Below, piece after piece: positions 1 to 35,015 of a stretch of DNA of 35,546 nt. The translations under genes and the position numbers were made by a program. A model generated the notes under the pieces. That model was not told the DNA's origin, searched no databases, and worked only from the letters and a program-made list of their open reading frames with translations. How positions within the stretch are numbered: the stretch's first letter is position 1; the number at the start of each line of letters is the position of its first letter. The stretch is taken from IMG/VR virus record IMGVR_UViG_2778261064_000019; one strand, written 5' to 3'. This DNA is from a virus (Duplodnaviria; Heunggongvirae; Uroviricota; Caudoviricetes).

Positions 1-1200
1 ATGCTGACCGATACCAAACTGAAAAACCTCAAAGCGCGGGAAAAACTTTATAAAGTTGCAGACCGTGATGGGCTGTATGTAACCGTATCTCCCAAGGGAT
101 TGGTGACGTTTCGCTATGACTATCGAATCAATGGTCGTCGTGAAACGTTAACTATTGGTCGCTATGGTGACGGTATTTCTCTGGCGCAGGCGCGCGAAAA
201 ATTAGTGGAAGCCAAAAAACGCGTAAATGCAGGAATATCGCCCGCTGGAGAGAAGCGTGACGGTAAAACAAAGCGAAAAGAAGAAAAGACACTCCACGAT
301 TTTACCGTCAGCTACATGAAACACACCCGGCTGGCGGACAGCACAAGGGCGATGAAGCAAAGCATTATCGACAGAGACATCACGCCAGTATGGGGGCGCA
401 AGCTGCTGTCAGAGATAACCCCCTCTCTCCTACGTGAGTATTGCGACAAGATAAAAGCGCGTGGTGCGCCAGCGACGGCGATTCAGGTTCGCAATATCGT
501 TAGTGCGGTATTTAAGTTCGCCGCGCTTCACGGCGACTATTACCCCAATCCTGCCGAAGAGGTTTTACCGGCTTCAATTGCGACATTCGAAGCGCGCGAC
601 AGGGCGCTCAAGCCAGAGGAGATAGGCTGGTTTTTCAATCAGCTTGAACAAACGGGTACATTACCCACCATCAAGCTGGCCATTAAATTGGTTTTATTAA
701 CGATGGTACGTAAAAGTGAACTGCTGAACGCTCCGTGGGGTGAGGTTAATTTTAATGCCTGCCTTTGGACGATTGACGCCAGCCGGATGAAGGGATCACG
801 GGATCATAATGTTTATCTGTCCCGGCAGGCACAGGACATTCTGATTGCCCTGAAAATGTGCGCAGGAAGCAGTGATTGGGTTTTGCCTTCATGCAATCAG
901 TCGTCGCATAAGACCATGTCGGCGGCGACCTTAAACCGGGTCATTAATCTTACGGTTAAGCAGGCGCAGGAACGGGGGATCAGGCTGGCGTCGTTTTCCG
1001 TTCACGATATGCGCCGAACGGCATCGACGTTATTGCATGAGGCGGGGTTTAATTCCGACTGGATAGAAAAATGCCTCGCGCACGAGGAAAGAAGCGTCAG
1101 AGCCGTTTATAACAAAGCGGAATACGCAGAGCAGCGCCGTGATATGTTGCAGCAGTGGGCGGATATGGTTGATGGGTGGATCAAGCAATACCGCCCGTAA
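1..1200 (+). CDS. int: Tyrosine integrase, P4/CP4-57-like family
   Basis: 399-aa ORF. N-terminus LTDTKLKNLK...DGLYVTVSPKG...FRYDYR is typical of P4-type integrases; C-terminal region HDMRRT...AHEERSVRAVY fits the tyrosine-recombinase catalytic region. ORF starts at the window edge, so the true 5' end and the att site are not visible. Confidence 0.85.
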   Translation: MLTDTKLKNLKAREKLYKVADRDGLYVTVSPKGLVTFRYDYRINGRRETLTIGRYGDGISLAQAREKLVEAKKRVNAGISPAGEKRDGKTKRKEEKTLHDFTVSYMKHTRLADSTRAMKQSIIDRDITPVWGRKLLSEITPSLLREYCDKIKARGAPATAIQVRNIVSAVFKFAALHGDYYPNPAEEVLPASIATFEARDRALKPEEIGWFFNQLEQTGTLPTIKLAIKLVLLTMVRKSELLNAPWGEVNFNACLWTIDASRMKGSRDHNVYLSRQAQDILIALKMCAGSSDWVLPSCNQSSHKTMSAATLNRVINLTVKQAQERGIRLASFSVHDMRRTASTLLHEAGFNSDWIEKCLAHEERSVRAVYNKAEYAEQRRDMLQQWADMVDGWIKQYRP

Positions 1201-2856: not shown

Positions 2857-5514
2857 TTAACGTTGAAAAACCCAACACTTCACCGTCGCCGGGCGGCGCG
2901 GTGCGGCTGGGTAACGGCGGTTAAATTCAGCGTTGATGCCGCTGTTAACCGTTCTGACTTCAATAAACTTGTGGGTACGGCTGGTTTTTAGCACTCGCTT
3001 CAAATCGCTGATCGGCGGGATCTGCTGGCGGCGCTCGGTAGCCAGTTGAATAAAGTGGTTAAGGTTAACGGCGATAAGCTGTTCATCGCGCGAGTGGTTG
3101 AGCTGTGGTTCGTCGTCGCCATCGAGGAAGTCGAAAATATCCCAGAACTCCTGCACCAGAGGATGGTCGGCGCTGATGGCCTGTTGGCGCTCCAGACTGA
3201 GGCGGATAAACATTTCTCTGGTCGCCTGTAGCTGCTCTTCCGTGACCGGAATAACCAGCGCCAGCGCGTCGAGCAGCGCCATAAGCTGGGCGTGGTTTTT
3301 AATGATGCGGATATGGCGAATATCTGGGTGGGAGTGAAGTTGCTGCTCGTATAGCGGGATCTGACGGTTAACGCACTCCAGCACGGCCTGTTCCGCCAGC
3401 GCTGCCTTCAGCATAAAGCCGGAAAGCTGTTCTACCGGCAGGCGTTCGAGCTGCTCGGCAGCGACCTTGGTCTGAGTATTCTGGCCGCTGCGGTCGGTGT
3501 ACAGGTGAATAATACGTTCCAGCACCGGGTTAGAGGCGCTAACATCGGCGTTTTGCGCAATCACAATCGCGCCCCGGAACGGCGGTTCATAGGTCTCGTT
3601 GCCGCTGTTACGCAGACCGCGAGAACGCACCGACCGCCCGTTATAGGCGGTTTTCAGCTCTTCCCAATCAAAGCCACGCTGCTTTGCCCCCTCCTGATTA
3701 CGGTCACCCTCGATCAGCACCACCGGCATATTTGCTACCTGCGCAAAGTTGCGCGCGCGGGCGGCCAGCGTTGATTTAGACGGATCGAAACCTTCATAGT
3801 CGCGTCGGCCCAACAGTTTTCAGAGGAACTCTATCAGCGTGGTTTTACCGCTGCCGGGTTCGCCAACGATTTCCAGAAATGGAAAGCTCTTGTGCTTGTC
3901 GCGGATCTGTTCGGCAAACATCGTCCCAAACCAGTACGCCAGCGCCACAAACCCCTTTGCGCCAAACGCCTGCCAGAGTAGCTGGGGCCACTGGCTGTCC
4001 ATCTGTTTTAAATTGTCGTTCAGCGTCAGGCTGACCGACTGGTTCAGGCTTTTAAGGCTAAGTTTGCCCATGTCGAAGAAGTCTTCTTCGTTGAGTGTGT
4101 ACAGCCGACCATCGCGAACGGCCAGATCGTTGAACACGTAAGCGCGGTATTCTTTGCTGTAGCCGATAAAATCAGTGGTCTGGACAGTTTTGATTTTGGG
4201 AAGCTGCTTGAGCAGCAACTTATCTAACTGCTGACTGGTGCCGGTGAAGATGCCGCCCTGCGCGATATGCAGCAGGCGCTTTTTGAATTCTGAGCCGCTG
4301 GAAAGTTGGGAGCCGGTGAAGGTGTTTTTTATCGGTGGAGTGTCGTCGGGGAAGTTAATGCGAAAGTAATACCAGCTTTCGTCGGTAATGGTGTTGGCCT
4401 GATAGTAGAGGGTGGTCGGGTAGCAGTTGGCTATCTCAACAACGGCGGCTGACTCCTGTAGCGCTTTATGTTTGGCTTCTTCTTCGTCCAGCTCCTCTTT
4501 GCCGTTATACATCACGTTATCAAAGGCACGCATATAACGGTCAATATCCAGCTTGAACCAGTACAGGCGGCTGTCGAACTCGAAGTGAAACTCTTTGCGT
4601 TCGGTACGCTCATGCATCAGTAATGCTTTGGCATTCGGATTGGGAGCGATCAACAGTGAACCGTAGTAACGATATTTTTTAATCAGATCCGGGTTTAGCC
4701 GATCGCGCTGGTGCAAATCGTTCCAGTCCAGCTTGGTGCGGGAATAGGGCGTTTGTGCGGCGGTGGAAAGCCAGCCGTCGTCGCGGCTGCGTTTTACCCA
4801 GCGGCGGGTGTAATTCATGCCCGCTTTGTCGTTATCCAGCGCCCAGACCAGTAAAGGACGCTTTTTATCCACGAACAGCGCGGCCAGTTGGCTTAACGCC
4901 TGCGCCGGATAGTTGTTACAGGTCATCAGGGAAACGGCGGCAATGCCGTGGTGGTGCAGGGCGATAGCGTCAAAAATGCCCTCAACCAGCCAGATCTCCT
5001 GCTGTTCTTCCAGCTTAAGCGTTGGCAATTGCCACCATAGCCCGCTGTAAGCGCCGTGAAAATTGGCTTTGCGATCGCCGAAACGCTGTGGGCGGTCAAC
5101 GATCCGCTCCCACCACACGCCGTCAGCCAGCGGGAAACGCACAGTGGCCGAGCCGAGATCGCGCCGTGCGTCATAGTAGTTCTCTTGAGCGTAACAGTTA
5201 CGGAGCAGCGAAAGGTCAAAGCCGCGCATCTCGCGCAGGTAGGCATCGGCGGCGGCCTGTGGGTTTTCCGGGGTTGGGGGATATCTGTCTGACCAGCTTT
5301 CAAATAGATCCGGGTACACCTCTTTGATATGGATTTCGGCATTGCATTTATTCAGGCGACCGCAGCGCAGTACCCACGGGCTGATGGCGTAGGTGTACAG
5401 CTCTTTTTTCTGGCAGTCCGGGCAGACGCCCTGCCGCAGCCAGTCGCCCTGTTCTTTAAAGGAAAAATCGGCTAGCAGTCGCCGCGTAATTTCCTGATGA
5501 AGTTGTGGTTGCAT
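2857..5514 (-). pseudogene. P4 alpha-like primase-helicase interrupted by an in-frame TGA (fragments 3820..5514 and 2857..3813)
   Basis: The two ORFs are in the same frame, separated by a single TGA at 3820..3822 (translation ...GEPGSGKTTLIEFL*KLLGRRDYEGF...). N-terminal Cys-rich zinc-binding motifs (CPDCQKK, CGRLNKC) and a Toprim-like segment (LVEGIFDAIALHHHG); Walker A (GEPGSGKTT) sits just before the stop, and the helicase region continues after it. Confidence 0.6.
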
Positions 5515-5602: not shown

Positions 5603-5833
5603 TTACGCGATTTTCTGCTTTTGCAGAAATTGCCCGCGTGTGGATAGCGGTATGTGTATCTTAGGATTCGGGCAACCGCTGGGTACTACCGTTCCCATCA
5701 CGGTCTCCATCGCGATAAATGAAAACGAACAGTTAACGTTCTTGCACTGGTAATAGAGCTTACGTACCAGCGGTGACATATATTCGCTGCTGCGAATTAT
5801 CGCCTTACCGTCGCAGTGTGGGCATTTCATCAT
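5603..5833 (-). CDS. ogr: Ogr/Delta-family zinc-finger late-gene transcriptional activator
   Basis: MMKCPHCDGKAIIRSSE...YYQCKNVNCSFSF matches the Cys4 motif of P2 Ogr. Start set at ATG 5833 (AGGAG 7 nt upstream) rather than the longer ORF start at 5851. Monomer size (76 aa) is Ogr-like, not the duplicated P4 Delta. Confidence 0.85.
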   Translation of the reverse strand: MMKCPHCDGKAIIRSSEYMSPLVRKLYYQCKNVNCSFSFIAMETVMGTVVPSGCPNPKIHIPLSTRGQFLQKQKIA

Positions 5834-6156
5834 GTCCGATCTCCTTACCACTTTTAACTAACTGAAACACTAACGCTTTTCGTTAACGGACTGACGAAAT
5901 AGTGTGATGCCGTTCAAAAAAATGATTCTTGCCATGCTGGACATCGAACGGTTCTGCTCCAGCGCTAATGCTTACAGTTCCGCGATTTCAGCGGGGAGCA
6001 GACGCATTGCCACCGGTTTGTTCGACATCACCCCGCGGGGTGCTCGTGAGCGTAAGACGTTCTCATTTGTTTTCATGGTGGTATATTGTGGTTATTAACA
6101 TTACACAATCTATAATTCCCTCAATTGAGTGAATTGTCAATGGTAATTATATCCAA
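5834..6156. promoter_or_regulatory. Divergent intergenic control region between ogr (minus) and the XRE gene (plus)
   Basis: 323-bp non-coding gap between divergently transcribed genes. Contains a 14-bp perfect palindrome CACCCCGCGGGGTG (6029..6042), palindrome TCAATTGA (6121..6128), TATAAT (6111..6116) and TTGTCA (6135..6140). Promoter assignment is not resolved. Confidence 0.35.
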
Positions 6157-6535: not shown

Positions 6536-7108
6536 ATGAAGTTGAATAATCTGGTTGCTCTTTACAGGAACATGACAGAGCAAAAATTGGATAGGGTTAA
6601 ATTCCCATACAGACACAATAATTTACATTTTGATGTATTTTTCTTTATTGATGGAAAACCGTTTGAGCTTCTTTTCGGAGCATTAGGCGCTAATCTTTGC
6701 TTTCGTCTAAAAGTCGAGAAGGGATTCGTCATAAATCCTAATCTGGGAAGTGAGACTTATAAAGAATTATGCAAGGCGCTAGGTTTGAAATATGACCCTG
6801 CCAATCCATTTAGAACAAGTAAGTTTTTTGAAGATTTTGATGGGAAAATCCCTACATCGGTTACTGTTAAGAATAAGGCAAAATATACTGATATTGCTGT
6901 GCATGTCAGGGATGTTGAAGAAGCAGACAGAATATATTTCTGTGGATGGAAAAACAACAATGAAGAAAAGAGTCATGTTACTGAAGATAATTTAAAGAAA
7001 ACGAAAGAGTTTTTAGGGTATCAGGCTTTTCTTGTTTGTAAGGAAAAGAATATTAGCAGTAGATGGACTGATTTAGAAAATAAAGCAAAAGATTTTTATT
7101 TACCATAG
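6536..7108 (+). CDS. Hypothetical protein, AT-rich cargo operon gene 1
   Basis: 190-aa ORF with GGAGG-like RBS before the ATG. Strongly AT-biased codon usage unlike the flanking phage genes. No family recognised. Confidence 0.6.
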   Translation: MKLNNLVALYRNMTEQKLDRVKFPYRHNNLHFDVFFFIDGKPFELLFGALGANLCFRLKVEKGFVINPNLGSETYKELCKALGLKYDPANPFRTSKFFEDFDGKIPTSVTVKNKAKYTDIAVHVRDVEEADRIYFCGWKNNNEEKSHVTEDNLKKTKEFLGYQAFLVCKEKNISSRWTDLENKAKDFYLP

Positions 7109-7122
7109 GATTGTGAGGTTAT

Positions 7123-8271
7123 ATGTCTGATATTTCATTAGGGTGCGTGGTTGTTCATAGGTTGATAAAAGAGCAACATAAAGATTTCGATCACTCAAAA
7201 CCATATAGTCGCCGTGATACGGTTCTTGACCGAAATAATGAAATCGTAATTAAACTAGTGTCCAGTATAGCCGCATTGTATGGTAAAAAATCTAATAGCT
7301 CGCATTATGGTATATTTAATTTAGATGAAACACGCAGGGGGCCTTTTCCAGCGGAATTTGATAAATATCGGAATGATACATCCAAGAAGTTAGACGATGA
7401 ATTGTTTATAGGATTATCAAAAAATGTTATGCATCAGTTATATATTGAGGCAAAGGATCGACCTGCTGCATCAGGAGGATTACTTCTTTTTGCTGATTAT
7501 ATCAGTAAATCCGTGCGTTACTTTCTTATTGCAATGATTAAGCAAAAGGAAGGTATAGTTATTAGTGATAAATTAGAGCCAAAGGAGTTAGAGCATCTTG
7601 ATCTGGCAAAACTAAACCAGGCGGCACGAATAAACTATGATTTGTATGATAAATATATTTCCGCTGATGAGAATGAAAGACAGGATGTTAATTATTTAAG
7701 TTTTGTTAGTCCCAGTTCTAACCAGACAACTTCAGGGTATTTCATTACTGCCTTAGGTTGTGATAAAGGTAATACATCAACTAAAGCTACGAGTAATTTA
7801 ATTAATGAATCTTTTAACTTCTTCAGAAATCATCAAGAATTAAAGGATAATGCCCGTAAATTTAAAAATGAAATTATTGAGTATTTATTCGATTGTTCTG
7901 AAAATAACATTTCAGCTAAGCTCTCTGTTGTTAGTGAGATGGCGGCGAAGCATATGGTTAATTTAGAAGATGACATTAAAGATAAATTGTCAGAAGAATT
8001 ATATGCTCATTTGAATAGTGAAAGTATTCGTGTGCCTGTGGAATTTAGGGTAAGCAAATCAGTAGTTAAGAAAAACAGAAATATTAAATATACAAGTGAT
8101 AATGTTAATTTTGAGTTTAAATCTAGTTTACTAGGCAATACTCTTGATAATGAGATATGCTATAATAAGAAAACTGGACATTTAACTTTTACTCGGATTA
8201 CTCCTGAGAAAAAAAGTGAAATAGCTCAATTGCTTGATGAGTTAATAAAAGAAAGAAATAGCGAAAAATAA
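7123..8271 (+). CDS. YejK/NdpA-like (NA37 family) nucleoid-associated protein homologue, cargo gene 2
   Basis: 382-aa ORF, 14 bp after gene 1 with a GTGAGG RBS. Full-length pattern similarity to E. coli YejK as recalled: MSDISLGCVVVHRLIK vs MSLDINQIALHQLIK; ASGGLLLFADYISKSVRYFLIAMI vs [25 protein letters not shown]. Not verified by search. Confidence 0.6.
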   Translation: MSDISLGCVVVHRLIKEQHKDFDHSKPYSRRDTVLDRNNEIVIKLVSSIAALYGKKSNSSHYGIFNLDETRRGPFPAEFDKYRNDTSKKLDDELFIGLSKNVMHQLYIEAKDRPAASGGLLLFADYISKSVRYFLIAMIKQKEGIVISDKLEPKELEHLDLAKLNQAARINYDLYDKYISADENERQDVNYLSFVSPSSNQTTSGYFITALGCDKGNTSTKATSNLINESFNFFRNHQELKDNARKFKNEIIEYLFDCSENNISAKLSVVSEMAAKHMVNLEDDIKDKLSEELYAHLNSESIRVPVEFRVSKSVVKKNRNIKYTSDNVNFEFKSSLLGNTLDNEICYNKKTGHLTFTRITPEKKSEIAQLLDELIKERNSEK

Positions 8272-8282
8272 GGTTGCTTAAT

Positions 8283-8912
8283 ATGTCATGTTTTGAAACG
8301 GTTGTTGAGCTTTTCAGATATGTAGGGCGTCCTAAATTTGATGCTATTAATAATCGTTTTTCAGCAACTATTTCTTATGATGCTCATATATATGAACTCT
8401 TAGTTTCTTTGCAACCTCATACAGCGTGGGGAGAAATTGAAGAGATTGTCATTGATGATGTGGATATAGATGTTGATGATAGCCTTCCCGCTAAAGGAAC
8501 ATCAATAACACTGACAATCTCTATATCAACTGGAGCTAGTGAGTCATTTTTTATCGATATTAAAGATCTAATTCAAAAGTCTCCGATGTTAAATAGAGGT
8601 ATTTTAAGAAAGTCTTTTTACTTGGTTGAGGAAGATTTTTATTTTAATGAAGGAATGGTTGAGGGATTAGCAAAAATACCAGAACTATCTGTTTTAAAGA
8701 ATCTTTGTGATTTTATTTTATGTCTATCAAAAGTTGCACACTACAGCAATAGTAAAAGTGATGATGTATGCCATAAGTTAGTTTTCTTGAAAAATACTAA
8801 TGCTAAGTCATTACCTTTAATTATTGAAACTAATGTTGATTATTCACTTCTTTTAACAGGTATTAAGGATTTAAAAATCATCGAATCTTTTTCTGATGAA
8901 AAAAAGCTATAA
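8283..8912 (+). CDS. Hypothetical acidic protein, cargo gene 3
   Basis: ORF track starts at TTG 8274; the first ATG is at 8283, about 11 nt after the gene 2 stop. Contains acidic stretch EEIVIDDVDIDVDDS. No family recognised. Confidence 0.55.
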   Translation: MSCFETVVELFRYVGRPKFDAINNRFSATISYDAHIYELLVSLQPHTAWGEIEEIVIDDVDIDVDDSLPAKGTSITLTISISTGASESFFIDIKDLIQKSPMLNRGILRKSFYLVEEDFYFNEGMVEGLAKIPELSVLKNLCDFILCLSKVAHYSNSKSDDVCHKLVFLKNTNAKSLPLIIETNVDYSLLLTGIKDLKIIESFSDEKKL

Positions 8913-8956: not shown

Positions 8957-9538
8957 GTGGTCGATTTTCTTGAATCAATCGATGTAAAGAAACAGTTTCA
9001 TTTTTTATTCTGTGAGTGGGATGAATTTCTAAAACTATACCATAATAACCTCGGTGTATATCTTAGTGGTTTTTCATTTCATAAAGTAAGAAAGGAAGTG
9101 GCAGAGGCAGAAGCTAATTTAGCTGAGCGTTTTTCAAAAATAATGTCAGACATGATAGCTAAGCTTTTAGGTATTCCTGTTTCTTTGGTTGCTACTTTTG
9201 GCATGATAAAATTAAATACCCTGCCGGAAATGTTAGTGGTTTTTTTAGGTGTATTGCTCACGTCGATAATTATGTTTTTTATTGTAAGAAGTCAATACAC
9301 ACAGTTTAGGATGATTTGTGATGCTAAAGATATTATATTTTCCCCATTAGTGAAAAAATCTGTAGGTTATACAGAAGATTTGAAAAAATTAGTATGCAAT
9401 GCAAAGGATAATTTAGACAAAAATCAGGTCATGTTAAATCGTTACCTTCTTTTCTTTCAATGCTTATGCTGGATTCCGACAGCCTTAGGTGGTGGAATGA
9501 TCTTAATGGCTATTATGGTTCATTTAGGATTACTATAA
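8957..9538 (+). CDS. Predicted multi-pass membrane protein, cargo gene 4
   Basis: Hydrophobic segments IPVSLVATFGMI, MLVVFLGVLLTSIIMFFIV and YLLFFQCLCWIPTALGGGMILMAIMVHLGLL. Track start is a GTG at 8957, so the true start is uncertain. Stop codon overlaps the gpD stop convergently. Confidence 0.5.
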   Translation: MVDFLESIDVKKQFHFLFCEWDEFLKLYHNNLGVYLSGFSFHKVRKEVAEAEANLAERFSKIMSDMIAKLLGIPVSLVATFGMIKLNTLPEMLVVFLGVLLTSIIMFFIVRSQYTQFRMICDAKDIIFSPLVKKSVGYTEDLKKLVCNAKDNLDKNQVMLNRYLLFFQCLCWIPTALGGGMILMAIMVHLGLL

Positions 9539-10633
9539 ACTTAATTCCATTTCTAATGCGGTGACATAACCAGTACCGCCATCCAACGTATGCACGCACC
9601 GCGTAATCACCCACGCGGTGCCATCAATTTCCGCCTTAAACCCCTTCACCTGCAGCGGTAATTCCGGGAACAAATCGGGCCGTCCACGCGCAAGATTCAG
9701 GCTGAACGTTGCCGCGCCGCGCTGTAGCTGCTCCCACGCGCTTTTTGCCGCTCTGTAGGCGTTATTTTTGTTGGCATAGGTGTGGCGCAGCACCTTGATA
9801 TTTCCCTCTTCGCCAACCATCACGTTATCAGCATTGAATGAGGCGTCTGACGGCGGAGATTCTGTTGGTTGCGTTTGTGGACGGTTTTTCCGTGTCTTGC
9901 GCTTCATGTCAGTGGACTGCTTTTTTGCCTGCCGTGTATCCAGCCAGTAGGCCGTCACACCGGTATACGCCTCCCTGTCCGCGATGCTGAACCGGTGGCT
10001 GTCGCCGTCCTCGCGGGTAATGGTTGCGACCGGCAGCGGTTTGCCGCTGGCACTTTTACCGGAACCTGTCGGCATTAGCAGCAGAGCATCATTTTTCACG
10101 CAGGCGATAGCGCCGTGCAGTTGCGCCAGCCGGGTCAGGAAGGAGGCATCGGATTCGTTAGTCTGGTCAACGTGCTCAATGGCGATCCCAGCCAGCTCGC
10201 CGCTGACGGTTGATTCCAGCTTATGACGCGCCGCCACGGTTTGCACAATCGCGCCCAGCGTCGCATCATGGTAGCTCTGTTCCCGTTTAACGTTCAGCGA
10301 ATCGCGGAAATCGGCGCTGCGGGCGCGGAGGCTGAGTACGTCCGGTGCGCCGCTGTGCTCCAGTTCGTCCACTGTGAAGACATTCTGGTGCATCACGCCG
10401 TCACCCTTCCAGCCTAGAGAAACCGTTAGCTTTTCGCCCTTTGCCGGAAACGCCAGCAGGCCGTCGCTGTCGTCCAGTTCGAGCTGCAGTTCGTCGGCCT
10501 CAAAGCCCCGGTTGTCGGTGATACGCAGGCTGATTAAGCGGTTGTCCAGATTCCGCGTAATGTCCTTACCGTTCAGCACCACGCTGTACTCCGGCTGCGG
10601 CTGGGCGTTTAAGAGTGCGTTTAACATCGTCAT
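9533..10633 (-). CDS. D: P2 gpD-like tail protein (late control D)
   Basis: 366-aa ORF at the end of the T-U-D string, in the order and size expected for P2 D. Confidence 0.8.
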   Translation of the reverse strand: MTMLNALLNAQPQPEYSVVLNGKDITRNLDNRLISLRITDNRGFEADELQLELDDSDGLLAFPAKGEKLTVSLGWKGDGVMHQNVFTVDELEHSGAPDVLSLRARSADFRDSLNVKREQSYHDATLGAIVQTVAARHKLESTVSGELAGIAIEHVDQTNESDASFLTRLAQLHGAIACVKNDALLLMPTGSGKSASGKPLPVATITREDGDSHRFSIADREAYTGVTAYWLDTRQAKKQSTDMKRKTRKNRPQTQPTESPPSDASFNADNVMVGEEGNIKVLRHTYANKNNAYRAAKSAWEQLQRGAATFSLNLARGRPDLFPELPLQVKGFKAEIDGTAWVITRCVHTLDGGTGYVTALEMELSL

Positions 10634-26608: not shown

Positions 26609-26797
26609 ATGGCGAAGAATAGCAGTCCTGCCAGCCGATACGGTATCAAGGTCGTAAAAAGAGACAGTATGAGCGGGCAGTTTGTACCCGTCGAAATGAA
26701 GCTGGACGGCCCGGAAGGTGAGCGTGTGATTAAAAAGTCGGCAGAGCGTATTTATGCCAGACACAACAAAGTCATTAAGGCGCTGGCTAACCGATGA
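26609..26797 (+). CDS. Putative antitoxin partner of Doc (family unassigned)
   Basis: 62-aa ORF whose stop overlaps the doc ATG (ATGA), the classic coupled toxin-antitoxin arrangement. Sequence does not resemble Phd as recalled. Confidence 0.45.
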   Translation: MAKNSSPASRYGIKVVKRDSMSGQFVPVEMKLDGPEGERVIKKSAERIYARHNKVIKALANR

Positions 26798-27171
26798 TTG
26801 ATGCACATTTGGTGATTGGAATTCACGACTTTATTCTTGCTCATGAGCCGGGATTGGTTGGTTATCAGGATGCTGGCCGGGTCGAGGCAACACTGGCACG
26901 GGTGGATAACCGTATTCTGTATGAGCAGATGAATGATATTTTCCAGATCGCCGCATCTTATGCGGTTGCCATCGCCAGAGGGCACGTTTTTGCTGATGCC
27001 AACAAGCGAACGGCACTGGTGACGGCGTTGACATACCTTGATATGCAGGGTGTGAACCTCAAGCGAACACAAAAGCTGGAAGATATTATGGTGGATGTGG
27101 CTGAGGGAACGCTAAATCTGGATGATTTAGCCGATATTTTCTATACCCTTAGTGATGTAAATGCTTCCTGA
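26794..27171 (+). CDS. doc: Doc (death-on-curing) / Fic-family toxin
   Basis: 125-aa ORF with the Fic/Doc active-site motif HVFADANKRTAL. Confidence 0.8.
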   Translation: MIDAHLVIGIHDFILAHEPGLVGYQDAGRVEATLARVDNRILYEQMNDIFQIAASYAVAIARGHVFADANKRTALVTALTYLDMQGVNLKRTQKLEDIMVDVAEGTLNLDDLADIFYTLSDVNAS

Positions 27172-34475: not shown

Positions 34476-35015
34476 TTAGTTAAACCAGCTGTCCGATTTG
34501 TTTTCTTCTGCTTTGCCCACGCTTTTCATCAGATCGCGACCGCCTTCAGTCATATTCCTGTTTGCGTCAGCTTCAGATTGCACCACATCGGTTTGCGCAG
34601 CTTTGTGCTTCAGTTCCTGATCGATAAATTCGTTTTCTCGCTTAACGCGGGCTTCTTCTTTCGCCAGCGCCAGTTTTTGTTTCTGAATCTCTAAGCTGCG
34701 TAGCTCATCTTCATAACTTTGATCGCGTTTCTTGTCCGCAGTGGCTTCGGCGTCCAGTTTATCCTGACGAGCTTTCTTATTCGCCGCTGCCGTTGCCGCT
34801 CTTTTATTAGCCGCGGCCTGGGCGTTTGCGCGACGTTGCTTCTCTTGCTGGATTTCCCTGTTGCGCTCCGCGACCCATTCGTCATGCTGCCTTTGCTCTT
34901 CGTTTTTACCTTGCTGTTCCGCTTCTGCGACAGCAGAGAGTTGATCCTGCAATGATGAGGCGATAGCCGGATAGCTTAAGGAGGCTAAGATGGCGCAAAG
35001 AAAAACTTTCTTCAT
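34476..35015 (-). CDS. Secreted coiled-coil protein (likely host-encoded)
   Basis: 179-aa ORF with a signal peptide (MKKVFLCAILASLSYPAIA) and a Lys/Glu/Ala-rich coiled-coil body. Confidence 0.5.
   Translation of the reverse strand: MKKVFLCAILASLSYPAIASSLQDQLSAVAEAEQQGKNEEQRQHDEWVAERNREIQQEKQRRANAQAAANKRAATAAANKKARQDKLDAEATADKKRDQSYEDELRSLEIQKQKLALAKEEARVKRENEFIDQELKHKAAQTDVVQSEADANRNMTEGGRDLMKSVGKAEENKSDSWFN

Follow-up and report, generated by a model that had tools for sequence, protein, structure and literature searches.

A diverged NA37/YejK-family protein and its frameshifted membrane partner in a P2-like Escherichia coli prophage: a probable sensor-effector module of abortive infection

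We analyzed a 35,546-nucleotide stretch of Caudoviricetes DNA (IMG/VR record IMGVR_UViG_2778261064_000019), here called the window, which is a P2-like Escherichia coli prophage. The open reading frame (ORF) at positions 7123 to 8271 encodes a diverged, prophage-borne protein of the NA37/YejK family. The protein probably acts as the sensor in a two-gene module of abortive infection, of which it would be the nucleoid-associated member. This module, a divergent relative of the DS-1 system, is built like type II PANGU and occupies a prophage hotspot as AT-rich cargo. The second gene would encode a membrane effector, and in the window it is split by a one-nucleotide deletion. By its sequence, the locus appears to encode a defense system of a known type, of which it would be a divergent representative that is probably crippled in the window. 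NA37-plus-effector pairs have already been published as anti-phage systems, namely DS-1 (PMC13092281) and PANGU (bioRxiv 10.64898/2026.04.06.716658).

RESULTS

Identity and predicted fold of the NA37 protein

A preliminary description, made from the DNA letters without database searches, had proposed that a 382-residue ORF encodes a highly diverged homolog of E. coli YejK, and this proposal was borne out in each comparison. The ORF is clean and ATG started, as described. Its product matched Pfam NA37 (PF04245) with an E value of 5.1e-45 and 154.7 bits (cut-off, 24.6), covering profile positions 1 to 322 of 325. PHROG 3767, described as "nucleoid associated protein," was matched as well, with an E value of 4e-63. 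BLASTP aligned the protein with E. coli K-12 YejK end to end over 363 columns at 20% identity (pairwise E = 1e-14), and phmmer against YejK of Protein Data Bank (PDB) entry 9be2 gave an E value of 1.4e-9. An AlphaFold2 model was built from 48 homologs (pLDDT, 85.7; pTM, 0.74). When this model was compared with the PDB by Foldseek, 9be2 was the sole significant match (E = 1.1e-14; probability, 1.0; TM scores, 0.45 and 0.51). The protein is accordingly modeled with the two-domain YejK fold. The three motifs named in the preliminary description also align with YejK: HRLIK (H12 to K16) with HQLIK, the glycine-glycine-hydrophobic block SGGLLLF with DGGFVLF, and the C-terminal segment HLTF with TLTI. 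Throughout the subfamily to which the window protein belongs, H12, K16, G118, and G119 do not vary.

Judged by its sequence, the window protein is not a YejK ortholog. It scored 108.1 bits against the NCBIfam YejK equivalog (PRK00378), which has a cut-off of 341 bits, and the true yejK gene is located elsewhere in E. coli. YejK (9be2) is a housekeeping nucleoid-associated clamp, with which the window protein has the two-domain fold and the core motifs in common. The window protein is longer than YejK by about 45 residues, which are located in its loops and C terminus, and its gene is accessory, prophage borne, and in an operon with a candidate effector gene. The gene was correctly noted as AT rich, having 32% GC versus approximately 57% for the prophage.

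An obligate downstream partner

The placement of the NA37 gene in an accessory operon carried as prophage cargo was likewise correct, but the downstream partner gene, and the frameshift within it, had been overlooked. The partner ATG at 8283 follows the NA37 stop at 8271 with a 12-nucleotide gap, within the limit of less than 40 bp that marks the tight bicistron of type II PANGU. The frame of the 5' partner fragment also includes a TTG at 8274. The partner region is annotated as two "hypothetical" ORFs, here ORF4 and ORF5. They match the two halves of one PHROG, 5023, and we read them as one gene. The ORF4 product is identical to residues 1 to 208 of an intact 418-residue ORF (locus L001), and ORF5 is likewise identical to the L001 sequence. 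ORF5 also scored 48.5 bits with the NCBIfam model DS1_2 (NF053869).

The NA37 subfamily comprises homologs of approximately 370 to 390 residues, 40 to 50% identical, from Enterobacterales and other bacteria. Its genomic surroundings were surveyed with home-built hidden Markov models in species-level genome loci and IMG/VR viral contigs. A homolog of the partner lay directly downstream of the NA37 gene in all 29 of the genome loci and in 70 of the 72 viral contigs, the remaining 2 being cut by contig ends. The two genes also diverge together: across 88 nonredundant pairs, the identities of sensor and partner to the reference co-vary with a Spearman coefficient of 0.70. An exhaustive profile search, clustered at 50%, gave 1,048 representatives of the partner, most of them 400 to 430 residues long, and a partner of about that size came next after NA37 in every context that was examined individually. 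Those contexts include lambdoid prophages of E. coli, Salmonella, and Yersinia, with the pair between antiterminator Q and the lysis genes. Outside prophages, the pair was found close to icd on a Proteus chromosome and next to a type I restriction-modification system in a Rheinheimera island. Genes for antiterminator Q, DUF968 proteins, methylases, integrases, and holins were enriched in the flanks. In light of the 72 viral contigs that carry the subfamily, and of the existence of PHROG 3767, carriage of such a gene by a phage is not the unusual event that it had been taken for.

Pairs with approximately 35 to 43% identity to the window protein were also seen on contigs from metagenome-assembled genomes of Methanosarcina (L022), Moraniibacteriota (L025), and Riflebacteria (L038). 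Their presence in archaeal and candidate-phylum bins could reflect long-range transfer or binning contamination.

The partner belongs to a family of approximately 400 to 430 residues that has no Pfam domain, and its two halves differ. The N-terminal half in the window has an isoelectric point (pI) of 4.8 and a net charge of -11/-12. In the 88 homologs, the N-terminal half has a median pI of 4.96 (net charge, -11), and the C-terminal half has a pI of 8.6 and two or three transmembrane-like segments. The intact partner has hydrophobic segments at residues ~314 to 336 and ~394 to 418, and a weaker one at 291 to 309. An AlphaFold2 model of the partner (pLDDT, 83.6) shows an alpha/beta N-terminal domain followed by long helices.

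Relationship to DS-1 and PANGU

DS-1 is among the 42 systems found with DefensePredictor that protected E. coli MG1655 against a phage panel (Science 2026; PMC13092281). DS-1 (D390) consists of one E. coli transcription unit, which codes for a YejK-domain protein (WP_000355468.1; 391 residues) and a hypothetical protein (WP_000150292.1; 404 residues), and it protected from a plasmid without any prophage (PMC13092281). The window sensor matched DS-1A by BLASTP with an E value of 8e-9, and hhalign of the partner family with DS-1B gave a probability of 96.8% and an E value of 2.5e-10 over 205 columns. At the sequence level, both window genes are distant homologs of the DS-1 genes. Each system is a two-gene unit in E. 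coli in which an NA37/YejK-domain gene precedes one for a protein of about 400 residues with a C-terminal hydrophobic region. The differences are considerable, as identity is only about 26% and over part of the length, and DS-1A has an extra zinc ribbon of approximately 40 residues at its N terminus that the window NA37 protein is without. The window unit, unlike DS-1, resides in a P2-like prophage with a DUF6037 gene upstream and a frameshifted effector gene. The DefensePredictor study also lists a 382-residue E. coli "nucleoid-associated protein" and the DUF6037 protein WP_024247617.1 as predictions only (PMC13092281). The latter is the DUF6037 allele of E. coli GMF054.

Two types of PANGU have been described in a preprint. 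Type I joins a YejK-like nucleoid-associated protein (NAP) to a GRel toxSAS, and type II joins a NAP, Pag2A, to a transmembrane effector, Pag2B (bioRxiv 10.64898/2026.04.06.716658). Pag2B has an acidic, DNA-mimicking N-terminal (DMK) domain that binds Pag2A with a dissociation constant (KD) of 19 nM, and a C-terminal transmembrane domain; both genes are needed, the outcome is abortive infection, and the NAP exits the nucleoid upon T4 infection (bioRxiv 10.64898/2026.04.06.716658). Type II PANGU, which occurs in E. coli and many phyla, resembles the window module in its YejK-like NAP, its effector with an acidic N terminus and a C-terminal transmembrane region, and its tight bicistron. DNA mimicry, NAP binding, and relocalization have been seen for type II PANGU, whereas the window module is known from sequence and models. 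Type I PANGU shares with the window a NAP sensor with a swappable effector, and also the same prophage lineage and slot, as set out below. Its effector is a nucleotide pyrophosphokinase, where that of the window would be a membrane protein, and the NA37 proteins are only about 20% identical. In lambda RexA/RexB, a prophage-expressed pair to which an analogy may also be drawn, a cytoplasmic sensor tied to DNA status works with an infection-aborting membrane effector; we found the two pairs to be related neither in sequence nor in fold. The window pair possibly also lies downstream of a repressor-like HTH gene.

Carried over to an intact window module, the model of the PANGU preprint would run as follows. 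A dimer of NA37 would sit nonspecifically on chromosomal DNA. An infecting phage that degrades the host genome would free the protein, which would leave the nucleoid and bind the acidic, DNA-mimicking N-terminal domain of the effector. That binding would switch on a toxic membrane domain, and growth would stop before phage release, giving an anti-phage phenotype. The preliminary description had suggested that the protein could sense or bind invading DNA. A role in sensing is plausible in this light. Binding of the DNA of an invader is not what the published model holds, as the signal there is the loss of host chromosomal DNA.

A frameshift separates the two halves of the putative effector

When the window was aligned with E. 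coli GMF054 over 3.4 kb, the sole indel was the loss of one A from a run of eight (A8 to A7). In GMF054, the partner is a single 418-residue ORF beginning 12 nucleotides past the NA37 gene. The deletion in the window closes the upstream frame at a TAA at 8910 to 8912, the downstream frame being open from 8900, and the break lies precisely where the acidic domain gives way to the membrane domain. Type II PANGU has both ORFs intact, and the window does not. Relative to the intact allele, the NA37 gene has five synonymous differences and one nonsynonymous difference, ORF4 has three synonymous and no nonsynonymous differences, and ORF5 has none. This near-synonymous-only pattern implies that the disruption is recent or that the sequence is still under constraint.

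An error of sequencing or assembly was ruled out as the source of the frameshift, since hundreds of independent assemblies contain exactly these split products. The 193-residue product was present on 377 contigs (744 sample blocks) and the 209-residue product on 355 contigs, always in the same prophage context, and the commonest intact 418-residue allele of E. coli was present on 178 contigs. The split A7 allele is the most frequent form of the locus in public E. coli assemblies. Intact alleles are also found in Morganella and Salmonella houtenae. At least five further disrupted effector alleles occur in E. coli, comprising A6, A9, two frameshifts in T runs, and one nonsense codon; among the poly-A variants, A6, A8, and A9 were all seen in other assemblies. 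Partners are split or degraded in three more loci as well (L033, L037, and L039). This series of null alleles suggests either that a costly effector is lost again and again or that the tract is hypermutable.

The heptamer A_AAA_AAG, at 8900 to 8906, is in phase with the upstream frame, and a -1 shift on it would restore the full protein. This is a classical -1 slippery heptamer, as in dnaX and IS911. The 84 nucleotides 3' of the A7 tract folded no better than shuffled sequences (z = -0.08), and a search of the sequence upstream of the tract for an element like a Shine-Dalgarno sequence found none. Programmed -1 frameshifting was set aside on these grounds and on account of the close relative with A8 and one ORF; we keep it as a reading of low probability. 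The notion that the poly-A tract is a conserved feature of the family was also rejected, since across the family both genes contain A8 and T8 runs at many dispersed sites, as expected in AT-rich DNA. With neither a downstream structure nor a Shine-Dalgarno-like element, and with such runs scattered across the family, plain mutation is the parsimonious reading. The window module is most likely inactive or strongly attenuated, and slippage on the heptamer could supply a small amount of full-length effector at most.

The ogr-gpD cargo hotspot

The features of the window are collected in Table 1. Between ogr and gpD, five ORFs lie on the same strand and encode a helix-turn-helix (HTH) protein, a DUF6037 protein, the NA37 protein, and the two partner fragments. 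The HTH gene has 51% GC and the other four have 31 to 34%. This cargo island is 100% identical to that of E. coli 24A16CRGN010 and 99.4% identical to that of E. coli GMF054; as a DNA query against 50,697 phage records, it gave zero matches. E. coli L725 (L013; NZ_CP036202.1) and CEC15 (H9) share the prophage backbone, with 96 to 98% identity at ogr, HTH, and gpD. Their ogr-gpD slot (6425 to 8511 in L725) contains instead another NA37 protein of 362 residues, approximately 20% identical to that of the window, and a RelA/SpoT-domain protein of 333 residues, a pair that is type I PANGU-like by sequence. With the same backbone holding such a pair in these two strains, the slot exchanges whole NAP-based systems within this prophage lineage.

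TABLE 1 Features of the window discussed in the text
Feature	Position	Strand	Evidence or remark
Integrase	1..1200		Identified prophage gene
Toprim replication gene			Prophage gene; 885 residues
Ogr/Delta	5603..5851	-	
XRE-type HTH protein, 112 residues	6157..6495	+	HTH_3 and HTH_31 matches; left edge of cargo hotspot
DUF6037 protein, 190 residues, AT rich	6536..7108	+	PF19503, E = 1.7e-31; 14 nucleotides 5' of NA37 gene
NA37/YejK-family protein, putative nucleoid-bound sensor (PagA/DS-1A-like)	7123..8271	+	382 residues, ATG start; Pfam NA37
Partner 5' fragment (ORF4), acidic N-terminal alpha/beta domain	8283..8912	+	209 residues from annotated ATG; PHROG 5023 positions 9 to 198 of 412
A7 homopolymer, site of 1-nucleotide deletion (A8 in intact allele)	8899..8905	+	Alignment with E. 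coli GMF054
Partner 3' fragment (ORF5), helical/transmembrane C-terminal half	8957..9538	+	193 residues from GTG; PHROG 5023 positions 224 to 397 of 412
gpD	9533..10633	-	Followed by gpU, tape measure, and further structural genes
yfgI-like DUF5384 gene	34476..35015		Host gene

The HTH gene is 98% identical at the nucleotide level in prophages with different cargo. On the basis of its GC content and its occurrence with other cargo, it is assigned to the phage backbone. A promoter-like site lies 5' of it at 6060 to 6087, and no terminator-like site was found between that site and the end of the cargo at 9538. Co-transcription of the HTH gene and the cargo in the lysogen is plausible, and the HTH protein is a possible regulator of the cargo, or its gene a possible promoter donor. 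Its transcription diverges from that of ogr and the early genes. The layout might be like that of cI-rexAB, in which case the HTH protein would be the immunity repressor and the cargo would share its transcript.

The DUF6037 gene is an optional accessory neighbor. It adjoins the NA37 module in 3 of the 72 viral loci and in none of the 29 genome loci, and 17 of 20 viral loci with DUF6037 are without a type II-like (NA37 plus transmembrane partner) module within 5 kb, 2 of those 17 preceding a type I-like pair. These counts ruled it out as an obligate third component. DUF6037 genes are independently mobile and were found upstream of NA37 with a transmembrane partner (L057, L059, and L063), of NA37 with a RelA/SpoT protein (L055 and L060), and of other cargo (L062 and L064). 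In Ralstonia phages, DUF6037 stands alone beside tail genes.

Two further observations concern the prophage at large. The toprim gene has a TGA at 3820 to 3822 (minus strand) where relatives have TGG (W565*), which splits it into in-frame ORFs of 564 and 318 residues; for that reason, this prophage copy may be replication defective. An equal 564-residue toprim gene call in AP025754.1 (L138) suggests, from the gene call alone, that the stop codon is common to both. Within a patch of lower GC at 26609 to 27171 (plus strand), there is a gene for a 125-residue Fic/Doc-family protein (PF02661; E = 2.6e-10), overlapped and preceded by a 62-residue ORF, and the two resemble a cargo pair of the Phd/Doc toxin-antitoxin type.

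DISCUSSION

The strict pairing of the two genes, their joint divergence, the layout of charge and transmembrane segments in the partner, and the homology of both to DS-1 together make a sensor-effector module of abortive infection the probable explanation of this locus. Several results weigh against it, among them those on the residues that would contact DNA. YejK is a nonspecific DNA-binding clamp, and mutation of R173, R176, and K177 abolishes its DNA binding (PMC11229321); mutation of the K200/R203/K204 triad of Pag1A does likewise (bioRxiv 10.64898/2026.04.06.716658). This basic triad aligns without gaps to S198, Q201, and T202 of the window protein (positions 7714 to 7728), and the triad positions are mostly nonbasic throughout the subfamily. 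A second YejK patch, R276/R280/K284, aligns to K312/K316/N320, of which two of three are basic. The scores for the known families are low as well. The window sensor reached 80.8 bits (E = 9e-23) with NF053868 (DS1_1), below the cut-off of 330 bits that DS-1A, run as a control, passed with 451 bits, and the intact partner reached 70.5 bits (E = 1.4e-19) with NF053869, below its cut-off of 315 bits. In a scan with PADLOC-DB 2023, the NA37 protein, the DUF6037 protein, and both partner fragments had no match, and fold searches with the partner model returned generic helical-bundle matches, none informative. The proposed match to type II PANGU is one of architecture, and the PANGU mechanism itself comes from a preprint in which how Pag2A activates Pag2B is called unknown (bioRxiv 10.64898/2026.04.06.716658). 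Finally, with the effector disrupted, the action of an intact system might not occur in the window.

DNA binding by the window protein is nevertheless plausible from its sequence, and other lysines and arginines are conserved in the subfamily, e.g., K140, K142, R169, and R186.

That the module in the window is dead cargo, an NA37 gene left over beside a frameshifted effector in a decaying prophage, has somewhat less than an even chance of being correct. The one-nucleotide deletion that splits the partner, the W565* codon in the toprim gene of the same prophage copy, and the other disrupted or degraded partner alleles in E. coli and in L033, L037, and L039 would all be expected of it. Yet the split allele is the commonest one, and further decay is not seen, since the differences from the intact allele are nearly all synonymous and ORF5 is identical. 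The known slippery heptamer also makes some full-length product possible. Moreover, dead cargo describes the state of the window copy and not the nature of the gene family, for which a sensor-effector defense module remains the reading that we prefer.

The A7 allele might instead be a working variant, which we consider unlikely. The cell would then make mostly the free acidic N-terminal domain, which may serve as a buffer or antitoxin-like decoy for NA37, and slippage of -1 on A_AAA_AAG may give the full-length effector as a small fraction. The poly-A tract, polymorphic from A6 to A9, would then turn a costly effector of abortive infection on or off or set its dosage. In addition, under this unlikely reading, the NA37 subfamily, which lacks the canonical basic triad for DNA contact, may respond to a signal other than bulk chromosomal DNA.

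We think it very unlikely that the NA37 protein is a nucleoid protein of mobile elements that regulates prophage or host expression or topology and is not an immune sensor. YejK is, as noted, a DNA-binding clamp, an HTH regulator gene lies upstream, and NdpA2, an NA37 homolog on the integrative and conjugative element PAPI-1, is reported to control PAPI-1 transfer (PMC8565334). A chromatin regulator would not be expected to be strictly paired, and to diverge jointly, with a membrane protein, however, and both genes are homologous to a validated defense pair; the HTH gene, for its part, is backbone and lies outside the cassette. Least credible, and hardly to be expected, is a role of the pair in lysis or superinfection exclusion for the phage itself rather than in immunity, with the membrane protein controlled by its DNA-binding partner: lambdoid prophages do place the pair between antiterminator Q and the holin and lysozyme genes, and the C-terminal half of the partner is modeled as a long helical bundle that would insert into the membrane, but the Q-to-lysis interval is a classical slot for morons and other cargo, the pair also occurs outside prophages in Proteus and Rheinheimera, the window pair lies in a P2-like tail-gene region, and DS-1 needed no prophage to protect.

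If the locus is read as a defense module, it bears on a family of abundant nucleoid proteins, NA37/YejK, whose role was long obscure. In 2026, such proteins were shown to be infection sensors with swappable effectors. To these the present locus adds a large, prophage-borne subfamily that combines a NAP with a putative membrane effector, its partners forming about 1,000 clusters at 50% identity, and evidence that one prophage hotspot swaps type I-like and type II-like NAP systems. It also adds a series of natural alleles in which the effector is disrupted, an indication that the effector carries a fitness cost. For annotation, two adjacent "hypothetical proteins" are to be taken as one frameshifted effector gene, and a prophage "nucleoid-associated protein" should be read as a component of a defense system.

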